DNA of 64,000 bases, taken from IMG/VR virus record IMGVR_UViG_3300044656_000027, positions 47,290 to 111,289 of that record, one strand, 5' to 3'. This DNA comes from a virus. Taxonomy: Duplodnaviria; Caudoviricetes. Below are positions 26,926-57,162 of this stretch, piece after piece. The first letter of the stretch is position 1. Every line of letters starts with the position of its first letter. Made by a program: the position numbers and the translations under genes. The notes under the pieces were generated by a model. That model worked only from the letters and a program-made list of their open reading frames with translations. It made no database searches and had not been told where the DNA came from.

Positions 26926-27013
26926 CGGAGATAGAGGGATTCGAACCCTCGGGGCGATTTGAATACCCGCTGCCTTTCCAAGACAGTGCACTAGACCTCT
27001 ATGCGATATCTCC
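26926..27013 (-). tRNA. tRNA-Ser(GGA)
   Basis: ctgtc-TTGGAAA-ggcag; long variable arm. Confidence 0.9.
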
Positions 27014-38540: not shown

Positions 38541-38960
38541 ATGGAACGCTTGGGACAGAAGAACCAAAGCTCCTATTATTCTAAACCGATTACACGGATA
38601 CACGCTGACTTCAACGGTATCTGTGCTTTATGCGGTGGATATGTGGAGCTTAAGGATGCATCCCGAGACCATATCATCCCTCGCTCAGAAGGCGGGGGTA
38701 ATGGCCGGGATAACATTCAATTAACGCACAAGAAGTGCAATAACCTAAAGGGTAACGTCGTTTACCCGAAGAATTGGCAAGAACAGCTCCAGCGGGAGAT
38801 GGTGATCCCACAGGGATATCGCTGCCGTTACTGTGAAATGCCGATTACCAATCAGCATAAGAAGCACAAGTGGGTAGTCAAGGTTATGAGCCATAAGGGT
38901 CATGTAGAGGCGCTGCACTCTTGGTGTAACGAAGAGAGGATCAAGTATGGTAAGCGTTGA
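38541..38960 (+). CDS. HNH endonuclease
   Basis: CALCG...DHIIPRSEGG...NIQLTHKKCNNLKG. Confidence 0.88.
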   Translation: MERLGQKNQSSYYSKPITRIHADFNGICALCGGYVELKDASRDHIIPRSEGGGNGRDNIQLTHKKCNNLKGNVVYPKNWQEQLQREMVIPQGYRCRYCEMPITNQHKKHKWVVKVMSHKGHVEALHSWCNEERIKYGKR

Positions 38961-42754: not shown

Positions 42755-42940
42755 TTACTTCGGTGGATTCAAAACGATCCAGTAACGGCGCTTGATAGAG
42801 ACAACGGTAAGTGTGTATCCAAGCTTTCGGTGAGTATCAAACTTACCAGCGTTCCAAGGTCCCATGTACTTCTGCATCAGAACCTTCCAAGCCTCATCAG
42901 CACTATCAAAGGACTCCAACCCTACTTGTTCTTTCTTCAC
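42755..42940 (-). CDS. Hypothetical protein
   Basis: GGAGGAG RBS; promoter TTGACG-N17-TAGACT at 42968-42996. Confidence 0.6.
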   Translation of the reverse strand: MKKEQVGLESFDSADEAWKVLMQKYMGPWNAGKFDTHRKLGYTLTVVSIKRRYWIVLNPPK

Positions 42941-42981
42941 GTTGCTCCTCCCCTAGTTGGTGGTACGAGTCTACATGACCT

Positions 42982-43107
42982 CCGATACTGCGTCAAGTCC
43001 CCGGATACTGTACTACGTAAAAATCATGAAGTCCATTCGTTTTACCGATACTGCTTCCAAATTAAAGATACTGTACTACGCGAAAAGTTGTAACTCTATT
43101 CGTTTTA
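42982..43107. repeat. Two imperfect 63-bp tandem units, each with two GATACTG boxes
   Basis: ccgatactgc..gatactgtactacg..attcgtttta repeated at 42982 and 43045. Confidence 0.8.
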
Positions 43108-43532
43108 TCAGGGGCCCCTTCCTACGTGCTCGAATCTTTTAAAGGTAGGGGGGTCTGTATTTCAACGAACTAACAACGGAATTCGTTGTCCTTCTCTAGG
43201 CCAACTAAACGAAATCCGCATAGTTAGGGCACATATTAGAGGGAATTAGTGGTGAATAGGCTCTGGAGTGCAATTACACACCATATTCGGGCATGAATAG
43301 GGGGATACTGCAATTCGTGGGCTATGTAGGGATCTATTCGTGTTGCCTGATATAGGACCAGGGGGAGGCTTAGATCAGTTGGTGCTCTGTATGTCAATCC
43401 ATACTCATGGGTAATATAGAGCAGCACTCACAGTGATAACGGACATATGGTCTGGTATGGCGTCTATGGTGCATGGGTGTGAGTTGACATGTCATCCATG
43501 GGCAACCATTGCAGGTCAGAGGGCATACCAGT

Positions 43533-43581
43533 AGTGGTCTAGACAACATGGTCTGAGATTGGTCTAGTGGTCTATACCTCT
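43533..43581. promoter_or_regulatory. Two DasR-responsive-element (dre)-like boxes
   Basis: AGTGGTCTAGACAACA and AGTGGTCTATACCTCT, each 14/16 to AGTGGTCTAGACCACT. Confidence 0.6.
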
Positions 43582-43952
43582 ACGGAGAGTGAAAATCCTC
43601 TGTAAGCCACGATCTCCCCTGTGTTGGATAGGGAGGACCAGAGAGGCTAAACGATCTCATTAGAGAGCCGTACAGAGCTTTTTGACGTATCTCTGTAGTG
43701 TGTGTTATACGCGTGTGCGTGTGTATGTTGAGCCCGTAGGTGTCATCCATGCTTCCCCCGCCGATTCCCTTCCCCCGCCTTCCCCGCTTGGGTGCCCGCC
43801 TGTGCGTTGGGCGCGCGGTTATCTCATGTGCCATGAGCCTGTGTCAAGAGAGTAGGACTGTCTTTTATGTCACACGAGAAATGGCGTTTGGAGTGTCAGG
43901 CATAGGGCAGGATGGAGGCACAACGACAGAGCAACGCGAGAGGGCAGGGATC

Positions 43953-45514: not shown

Positions 45515-45595
45515 CCATCTTCTTACCGTGTGGGGGTCTTGACACTGAGACCCCCACATAAGAGGGTGTGAACGTTGGCAGTCACGAGAGGGGAA

Positions 45596-46624
45596 ATGAT
45601 CATGATCACTGGAGCTCGCAAGGGTGGCGCAGTTCGCCACTACGCGCACAGTGCAGACGCGCACAGCCTGTGCGGCCGGTACATGATCCCTGGCATGGGT
45701 GAGGCTCTTCGTGACTGCCGTTCGTGCGTGCGTATCGGCAAGCTTGTTGGACAGGGTGCCAACGATCTTGAGCTGTTGGCCGCTACTCGTTACAACGGCA
45801 ACGTTGCTCACGTGCGTGAGGTAATCGCTAAGCCGCTCACGTCCTCCCGTCGCTCGTTCCTTCGTGAGATCTTGCGAGACACGTCCGGTGACCTTGACCC
45901 CGCTTGCCGTGCGCTTTACATCCTGTGGCTTGAGTACGCGCCGAATGCCGGTATCGACGCGGGCATGTACGCGGACCCTAAGCGTGTCTCTCGCTCTAAC
46001 CCGAATGCGGGAATGATCGATCCGAAGAACGCTCGTCCGGCGCGTTCCATTCTCACGGACAATCAGCGCAACGCGCTCATCCGCATGAGCAACTTTGAGA
46101 ATTCCCTCATTGCGCAGATTCGAGAGGCAGAGGGCAACGAGATTCCGGAGTTGTCTCCGGTCGGGGATGAGTTCTTCGCAAAGCTCGCCAATCGCACTGA
46201 GATTGACAAGGCTTTCACCACGATTTCCGCGAGCATTGACAAGCTCAAGGCGCGGTTGTCTGAGGTGAAGCGCGCCGCTCGTGTGGCCGCACCTGTTGCC
46301 CCTAAGGCTGCATTCAAGGCAGGCGAAATGGTCAAGGGTGGCGTTTACGAAATGGATGGTGAGCTTTACCGCTACGCCATTGCACAGCGCTCCGGTTACG
46401 CCTACGCACTCAAGTGGAATGGCAGTGAATGGGATTACGACAGTGCGCGTGGCATTGTCCGCAAGCTCACTCCCGAAATGGCTATCAGTGCGGAGCGCGC
46501 TAAGGAATTTGGCCACACGCACCACTGCTGTGTCTTCTGCTCTCGCCCGCTGAACGACCCGCGTAGCGAGGATGCCGGTTACGGCTCCACCTGTGCGGAC
46601 AACTATGGTCTTCCTTGGGGCTAG
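45596..46624 (+). CDS. DUF6011-like Zn-finger protein
   Basis: C-terminal CVFCSRPLNDPRS..AGYGSTCA. Confidence 0.7.
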   Translation: MIMITGARKGGAVRHYAHSADAHSLCGRYMIPGMGEALRDCRSCVRIGKLVGQGANDLELLAATRYNGNVAHVREVIAKPLTSSRRSFLREILRDTSGDLDPACRALYILWLEYAPNAGIDAGMYADPKRVSRSNPNAGMIDPKNARPARSILTDNQRNALIRMSNFENSLIAQIREAEGNEIPELSPVGDEFFAKLANRTEIDKAFTTISASIDKLKARLSEVKRAARVAAPVAPKAAFKAGEMVKGGVYEMDGELYRYAIAQRSGYAYALKWNGSEWDYDSARGIVRKLTPEMAISAERAKEFGHTHHCCVFCSRPLNDPRSEDAGYGSTCADNYGLPWG

Positions 46625-46719
46625 GAAGCTCTCCAGGGGGTCTAGGACACGCTTAGACCCCCTGCCCTAGGCAGTCAGTCCAACCACCATGAACGATCTT
46701 GTTAGAGAGGCATACAGCC

Positions 46720-47259
46720 ATGATCAACATTCTTGACGCTGCGATCACTGAGGCTCAGGACCGTGCACGGGAGGCTCAACGCGCAGCGCTTGGCAGTAGC
46801 AGTCTCATTCTGCGAGAGGCACGAGACCGCGCAGAGGATGAGTTTCACGCGCTGCTCACCTGCGCGGGTTACACCTTCCCGCACACGGACGCAGACGACA
46901 ACGACGTGATGGTGTGGGACTACCACATGCGCGGAGTGTGGAGCTTCACTATCAACGACGCTCAGGCGTACGTCAGTTGGAACGGCTCAGGTCTGTGGTC
47001 ATACGTGATCATTGACATTTCCGCGCCTGGCACGCTCATGCGTGATGAGATCATGGAAATCGGGGAGCGTGTTGGTGATGGTTTGCTGCCCAGTTGGGCG
47101 CGTGGTCCTCTCGGGATTATCGCGTACAAAGCGGCTGACCATGACATGAGCATTGCCCAGGCCAACGAGGGTGAGCCGTACGAGGATTACGATGCGGTTG
47201 ACGTGTCGTATGACTACGACGATTACGACTTGCCGGACACGGGTTACTACGGCTACTAG
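46720..47259 (+). CDS. Hypothetical protein with acidic Tyr-rich tail
   Basis: GAGAGG RBS in repeated leader. Confidence 0.6.
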   Translation: MINILDAAITEAQDRAREAQRAALGSSSLILREARDRAEDEFHALLTCAGYTFPHTDADDNDVMVWDYHMRGVWSFTINDAQAYVSWNGSGLWSYVIIDISAPGTLMRDEIMEIGERVGDGLLPSWARGPLGIIAYKAADHDMSIAQANEGEPYEDYDAVDVSYDYDDYDLPDTGYYGY

Positions 47260-51126: not shown

Positions 51127-51197
51127 GACACAGGGCTGTACCACTTGACACAGGCTCATGGCACATGGTTAGCTAGTGCCAACGAAAGGGGAGCGCG

Positions 51198-56886: not shown

Positions 56887-57162
56887 CTAGGGCTTGTACG
56901 TGGCCTGTGCTCCTACGCTCCCACCGAAGTTCATAGCGTGTGTCGTAAGGGCTGCATTGCTGGTCACACGGTTCTGAAAGTTGGTTGCGTGGGTTGCGGC
57001 CTGTGCGGCTCTCGCTGTGCTACCTAGGGCCGTCTGTAGCTTCGTGGCAGCGTCTGCCACAGAGGTGCACGCGATCAGTTGCGGATCGCCAATGGTCTGG
57101 TGTGCCGTGTATGCTGTGGTCTGAGCCACAATCTTTGTGTTGTACAGTACGAGTGTTGGCAT
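56887..57162 (-). CDS. Ala/Thr-rich hypothetical protein
   Basis: AAGGG RBS before MPTLVL; start trimmed. Confidence 0.5.
   Translation of the reverse strand: MPTLVLYNTKIVAQTTAYTAHQTIGDPQLIACTSVADAATKLQTALGSTARAAQAATHATNFQNRVTSNAALTTHAMNFGGSVGAQATYKP

Follow-up and report, generated by a model that had tools for sequence, protein, structure and literature searches.

Two 16-bp palindromes that resemble dre, the operator of the Streptomyces repressor DasR, lie close together in the control region of a soil phage genome. Our analysis indicates that these paired boxes are a real, non-random feature of that genome, and their match to known operators makes binding of host DasR plausible. The window analyzed here comprises the final 64 kb of a metagenomic phage contig from IMG/VR (111,289 bp), the ends of which overlap by 127 bp as an assembly artefact. 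A preliminary description of the window had reported boxes at 43533 and 43566, 33 bp apart from start to start, each agreeing at 14 of 16 positions with A(G/C)TGGTCTAGACCA(G/C)T. Both 16-mers were found there, and a consensus scan likewise returned 14/16 for each (Table 1). Across the entire 111,289-bp genome they are the only matches of at least 14/16, as compared to 0.065 such sites per genome in mononucleotide shuffles.

Table 1. Coordinates, in window positions, of the dre-like boxes and of the features surrounding them.
Feature	Position	Strand	Basis or remark
Leftward ORF, 61 aa	42755-42940	-	good ribosome site
Promoter of the 61-aa ORF, TTGACG-17-TAGACT	42996-42968	-	consensus scan
Predicted direct terminal repeat	left edge ~43111-43113, right edge ~43322-43369	+	homology only
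Array of six YATGGK (43406, 43446, 43465, 43472, 43497, 43547)	43406-43552	+	one orientation
Fifth TGGTCT copy, within TATGGTCT	43448-43453	+	
Candidate promoter reading rightward: TTGACA without mismatch, then a poor -10 (CATTGC) after 17 nt	43484-43512	+	
dre-like box 1, AGTGGTCTAGACAACA	43533-43548	.	14/16 consensus; 18.25 bits (+), 18.84 bits (-)
Two TGGTCT half-sites (43549, 43560) filling the inter-box spacer	43549-43565	+	
Possible weak third site, ATTGGTCTAGTGGTCT	43558-43573	+	7.45 bits; overlaps box 2
dre-like box 2, AGTGGTCTATACCTCT	43566-43581	.	14/16 consensus; 18.85 bits
First early-side ORF, 324 aa	43953-44927	+	no Pfam/PHROG family

The preliminary description had also proposed scoring the boxes with a DasR matrix against the phage background. 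Table 1 of PMC4398421 lists 43 distinct dre elements, from which we compiled a log-odds matrix by manual counting. The boxes score 18.3-18.9 bits on this matrix, whereas sites sampled from the matrix itself have a median of 17.0 bits. According to the exact background tail, 0.09 sites of at least 18.25 bits are expected in the genome, with a probability of 8e-5 that an independent second one falls within 50 bp. The two boxes have a 13-nt direct repeat in common, however, and are therefore not independent events. Given TGGTCT, the right half of each box is more dre-like than chance would predict (P ~2e-3 each), and at positions outside the direct repeat the corresponding value is P ~0.07 each. 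In addition, a palindromic core of 12 bp can take no more than 4096 forms, and some chance look-alikes of dre are to be expected across many phage windows. The third-best site of the genome scores 15.1 bits, and with two strong sites only, a many-copy set of promoter operators was rejected. This third site (26985-27000) lies inside a tRNA-Ser(gga) gene; DasR binding at tRNA gene clusters has been reported in S. coelicolor (PMC4398421).

In terms of individual operators, the reverse complement of box 1 is identical at 14 of 16 positions to the dre of ptsH, which has the highest score in the table of PMC4398421; this reverse complement also has a GGTCTAGACAA core in common with the two SCO6300 dre. 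Box 2 shows the same level of identity (14/16) to both the crr-ptsI dre and the ngcE dre. The ptsH, crr-ptsI and ngcE sites are all S. coelicolor dre that were validated by ChIP or EMSA, and the authors of PMC4398421 state that no high-scoring dre escaped DasR binding in their in vitro assays. Both boxes contain the HutC-type core GT-N-TA-N-AC, and both have in their left half the GG pair that has been described as recognised by two arginines (PMC4918961). The right-half CC is kept in box 2; in box 1 it is replaced by CA, as in the ChIP-positive SCO6300 sites. The possible weak third site combines a good left half (11.7) with a poor right half (-4.3). The box sequence is identical in contigs from an independent soil study; among the sequencing runs, contigs of the one diverged strain (X15) and of X13 do not extend over the boxes.

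With respect to genomic setting, the boxes had been described as lying in a long non-coding stretch just before putative early genes, and this was borne out. The gap extends for ~1 kb (42941-43952) between two divergent ORFs, the leftward one of 61 aa and the rightward one of 324 aa, and the boxes are positioned 372-420 bp upstream of the latter. A coding reading of the box stretch was rejected, as the overlapping minus-strand ORFs of 51 and 84 aa have no visible ribosome-binding site. The 324-aa ORF opens a GC-richer block and has weak similarity to BRock gp1 (E 6e-5); protein searches also found homologues of its product in other assemblies, one of them on a 113-kb contig. At the opposite side of the gap, GATACTG occurs five times, together with two direct repeats of 63 nt (42984-43107 and 43304). 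These elements cover the region of the leftward promoter that serves the 61-aa ORF, and are candidate operators of a different regulator.

Many promoters of the form TTGACA-17-TAnnnT are used by this phage. A consensus scan, together with a scan for a -35 hexamer matching at least 4/6 plus TAnnnT, revealed no sigma-70-type promoter of the TTGACA/TAnnnT kind that overlaps or adjoins the boxes, and for the gap as a whole the same scans yielded a single rightward candidate, a weak one at 43440-43470. The TTGACA candidate at 43484 fails the TAnnnT rule and lies 44 nt upstream of the boxes; were this promoter to be active, box 1 would fall at about +12 to +30. Two other elements of the region were observed in the course of this analysis. 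An identical 23-nt element is present at 43825-43847 (minus strand) and 51145-51167 (plus strand), which starts with TTGACA, contains CATGGCACATG and is promoter-like, without a good -10. The second is a 36-nt stretch (43647-43682; also L038 1501-1536) that is 97% identical to the non-coding DNA preceding gene 10 of two tectiviruses of Streptomyces, WheeHeim and RickRoss. Weaker copies of this stretch are found near 46690-46724, 47342 and 51091, its core (TTAGAGAGCC.TACAG) recurs in Alone3, and a looser form heads several genes of the present phage; a scan of genome contigs for the element shared with WheeHeim gave no match.

The sequenced relatives of this phage are only BRock, Alone3, LuckySocke, GiJojo and pSt2308, and at ~33% identity in a neighbouring protein they are distant. 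All five were isolated on Streptomyces (S. lividans, S. mirabilis, S. turgidiscabies and Streptomyces sp.). Exact direct terminal repeats are present in BRock (221 bp), Alone3 (197 bp) and GiJojo (197 bp). The relatives' repeats are located in a ~1-kb non-coding gap between divergent genes, ~2.5 kb upstream of a homologue of this phage's ORF 45575-46624, and they have landmarks in common with the gap described here, namely TTAAAGGTAGGGGGG (43139-43153) and ATGAATAGGGGGATA (43293-43307). On the strength of these shared landmarks a terminal repeat is predicted in this phage as well, which would place the boxes ~165-260 bp genome-inward of a short terminal repeat and ~420-470 bp from the left physical end.

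Several further observations concern this end region. In an independent soil run, 42920-43773 forms a single contig with a depth of 18.2, as compared to 10.3-11 on both flanks. A terminal repeat of ~250 bp is by itself insufficient to explain this depth; either the terminal repeat is longer than homology predicts, or the segment is a module common to a second phage in that sample. An HNH endonuclease gene, which in BRock, Alone3, GiJojo and pSt2308 immediately adjoins the genome end, is located here at 38550-38960 (plus strand), ~4 kb from the end region and on the opposite strand relative to it. Between the terminal repeat and gene 1, Alone3, pSt2308 and GiJojo have in common promoter-like units in which TTGACA is followed 12-13 nt on by TATGGT or by TATGAG/TTGAGA, a spacing that is too short for a standard sigma-70 promoter.

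Conservation of the boxes in relatives, put forward as a check in the preliminary description, was not observed. No site with two or fewer mismatches is present in the whole genomes of BRock, Alone3, pSt2308 and GiJojo, in which dre matches with three mismatches occur at the level of a reversed-pattern control, and the equivalent regions of the relatives contain nothing above 11-12/16 to the dre consensus. Megablast and blastn against phage records, as well as protein-seeded scans of viral, metagenome and genome contigs, found no closer relative with a comparable control region, and a scan for the conserved end landmark gave 31 chance matches, none of them related.

The spacer between the boxes is itself unusual. 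Extra copies of TGGTCT had been noted at 43549 and 43560, and both were found, along with another at 43448. In the surroundings of the boxes this half-site occurs five times on the plus strand and zero times on the minus strand, with four copies arranged head to tail at 14, 11 and 8 nt. At the genome-wide frequency of TGGTCT (56 per 128 kb, both strands), ~0.009 copies are expected in the 20-nt spacer versus the two that are present. Two TGGTCT copies belong to an array of YATGGK, a motif that occurs six times on the plus strand and once on the minus strand within 842 nt, as compared to 0.7-1.6 per kb in the genome. A plus-strand-only YATGGK array is also present after the terminal repeat in BRock, Alone3, GiJojo and pSt2308, and each relative has its own repeat words in the region between terminal repeat and first gene. 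Another TGGTCT pair, at 57093/57117, is inside a coding frame and was set aside as unrelated.

Turning to the protein that might read the boxes, six-frame searches with E values up to 1 found no GntR winged-helix domain (PF00392) and no UTRA domain (PF07702) in the phage, whereas control genomes were positive. A phage-encoded HutC regulator was rejected on these grounds, and a HutC-type reader would have to come from the host. The boxes may represent operator-grade sites for a host amino-sugar repressor of the GntR/HutC type, which would be DasR if the host is a Streptomyces. DasR dimers could bind both palindromes on the same helix face, 33 bp apart and perhaps aided by the intervening half-sites. 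Once bound, DasR might hinder rightward transcription into the early block, either by promoter occlusion or as a roadblock, and GlcN-6P or GlcNAc-6P would release it from the boxes. That a host DasR-type repressor binds the boxes and affects entry into the early block is the reading we tentatively favour, at somewhat short of an even chance. The presence of DasR in the host, its binding to the boxes, the identity of the affected promoter and any benefit to the phage are inferences; sensing of amino sugars and titration of DasR by the phage are conjectural.

The host-DasR reading offered in the preliminary description therefore holds up in part. The boxes are good matches to dre, the phage is without a GntR/HutC protein of its own, and its relatives grow on Streptomyces; on the other hand, dre are absent from four relatives and no sigma-70-type promoter is found at the boxes. 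The boxes also adjoin the predicted terminal repeat and belong to an array of short repeats with one orientation, which keeps packaging or terminal sites, the refuting case named in that description, a real alternative. The arrangement of the sites provides two additional points against an input from DasR. Many DasR targets contain two dre 15-40 bp apart (PMC4398421), but the distance is usually 15-22 bp, with one 40-bp case listed, so that a spacing of 33 bp is wider than usual. Furthermore, the three extra TGGTCT copies in the same orientation would not be needed by a dimeric protein that binds palindromes.

Palindromes of this type were also encountered in other phages. A perfect dre consensus was found in nine contigs of an IMG/VR scan, a number that is not enrichment in itself. 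Three of the nine (G001, G002 and G003) carry several dre copies, and no GntR domain was detected in any of these three. The 44.5-kb contig G001, whose terminase is 67% identical to those of the Streptomyces phages Stella and FlowerPower, has two dre 86 bp apart within 21-nt repeats in its left terminal non-coding region (L044 58-159), and in G002 two dre are situated 119 bp apart in non-coding DNA (L048 10042-10176); the palindromes of both contigs are perfect or near-perfect. G003 (IMGVR_UViG_3300012942_000035) is 115 kb long, tRNA-rich and 47% GC, and contains three dre, each 1-12 nt from a -35 hexamer. Specifically, a GOLLD RNA (RF02032, 199.7 bits) set within a tRNA array is preceded by a TTGACA-17-TAGAGT promoter, and 12 nt upstream of this promoter there is a perfect dre (L043 2000-2853 for the whole arrangement); the other two copies (L051, L052) adjoin other -35 hexamers. 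FlowerPower, Stella and Manuel have no dre at the place where G001 has them, and contain other repeats there (CATGTCC and the like).

This evidence from other phages cuts both ways, as dre recur in genomes without a GntR protein of their own and terminal regions hold fast-changing, phage-specific repeats. One could propose that Streptomyces phages of several unrelated lineages lacking their own GntR, comprising this 111-kb phage, the 44.5-kb FlowerPower-like phage, a 60-kb contig and the 115-kb tRNA-rich phage, took up operator-grade DasR sites that would couple early transcription or genome-end events to a host checkpoint for GlcNAc and cell-wall turnover. We consider this broader proposal doubtful, and advance it as a possibility only.

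The main rival to the DasR reading holds that the TGGTCT units form an array of short direct repeats that is specific to this phage and lies beside the terminal repeat. A phage protein would read this array to recognize or package the genome end, to start replication or to transcribe the early genes, and the likeness of two units to dre would be coincidental. We regard this as a serious possibility, albeit one that is probably incorrect. The single orientation of all five TGGTCT copies, with four head to tail, supports it, as does their place 165-260 bp from the predicted repeat in a YATGGK array whose position and orientation are conserved in the BRock-like relatives. The individual repeat words found there in each relative, and the lack of conservation of the boxes, point the same way. 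Moreover, the unrelated phages FlowerPower, Stella and Manuel carry phage-specific repeats in their left terminal 300 nt, and it is at this left-terminal place that G001, a relative of the FlowerPower group, has its dre-like 21-nt repeats. Nonetheless, recognition of bare TGGTCT leaves the dre-like right halves and the 2-nt distance to validated dre unexplained, and no candidate phage binding protein was identified. The two readings are also not exclusive, because the DasR of a Streptomyces host should bind such sites whatever else does so.

Three further explanations carry less weight. The boxes might be without function, having arisen when a word that resembles dre by chance was duplicated locally and neutrally. 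This is consistent with the 13-nt direct repeat common to the boxes, with their absence from relatives and with the very many windows that were scanned. We consider it unlikely, as even a single site of at least 18.25 bits is expected well below once per genome, the sequence recurs unchanged in contigs of an independent study, and the two half-sites in the 20-nt spacer together with the independently dre-like right halves argue for selection. Less probable still is a role as decoy, in which multiplying genomes with two strong sites each would soak up DasR and derepress host GlcNAc, chitin, PTS and development genes, with no phage promoter being controlled. The strength of the sites and the absence of an overlapping phage promoter suit such a role, in which ~200 predicted chromosomal dre would compete for the repressor; on the other side, only two sites are present per genome, and the relatives do not have the boxes. 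Finally, the stretch might encode a structured RNA element instead of a DNA site, given that the two half-palindromes pair with each other in the predicted fold. Fold energies were no better than those of shuffles (z -0.61 and -0.19), and with E values of up to 1 allowed, nothing in Rfam matched the boxes; on these results the RNA element was rejected, and we view it as very improbable.

Comparison with known systems places the boxes closest to the dre of S. coelicolor (PMC4398421; PMC4918961). Both are 16-bp palindromes of the same consensus, the boxes differ from validated sites by as little as 2 nt, dre are likewise often paired and non-coding, and the effectors would be GlcN-6P and GlcNAc-6P. 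The boxes differ in being located on a lytic-type phage genome rather than on a chromosome, as well as in their 33-bp spacing and extra same-strand half-sites, and no promoter under their control was identified. The NagR (YvoA) protein of Bacillus subtilis uses the same type of operator and the same effectors, and its DNA-contacting residues are conserved with DasR (PMC4918961), which means that a Gram-positive host other than Streptomyces could also read the boxes. There is no sign of a Bacillus-type host, however, and the phage's relatives grow on Streptomyces. The boxes are also distinct from the TGGCCTAGGCCA-type operators described for phage-encoded GntR/HutC repressors of large Streptomyces phages, in that there is no GntR/UTRA gene, that there are two sites and that the core is of the host type.

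Sites for host factors on phage DNA have precedents, including LexA boxes on temperate phages, IHF sites at lambda cos and attP, and DnaA boxes in the first-step-transfer region of T5. As in those cases, a phage control or terminal region would here hold sites for a host DNA-binding protein, but the host factor would be a nutrient-sensing repressor. Our literature searches returned no phage precedent for sites of a nutrient-sensing host repressor and no paper on DasR sites in phages. A parallel for the rival reading is provided by T7, in which the terminal repeat is flanked by short repeat arrays (SRL/SRR) with a poorly defined role. As in T7, short repeats of a single orientation would separate a short direct terminal repeat, here a predicted one, from the early promoters; T7 has another repeat word, and two units in the present phage form dre-grade palindromes.

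As for what the boxes would mean, it is through DasR that Streptomyces development and antibiotic production are coupled to N-acetylglucosamine and to recycling of the cell wall. Strong DasR sites before the early genes could time infection by the nutritional or developmental state of the host, or could alternatively disturb the host switch by soaking up the repressor. Either timing or titration would amount to a new kind of coupling between phage and host in an industrially important genus, and if the proposal of DasR sites in several phage lineages were true, it would be the first link of phage infection to the DasR feast-or-famine switch. The end and packaging signals of BRock-like phages are poorly characterized, and the repeats would help to pin them down if they are instead terminal recognition sites.
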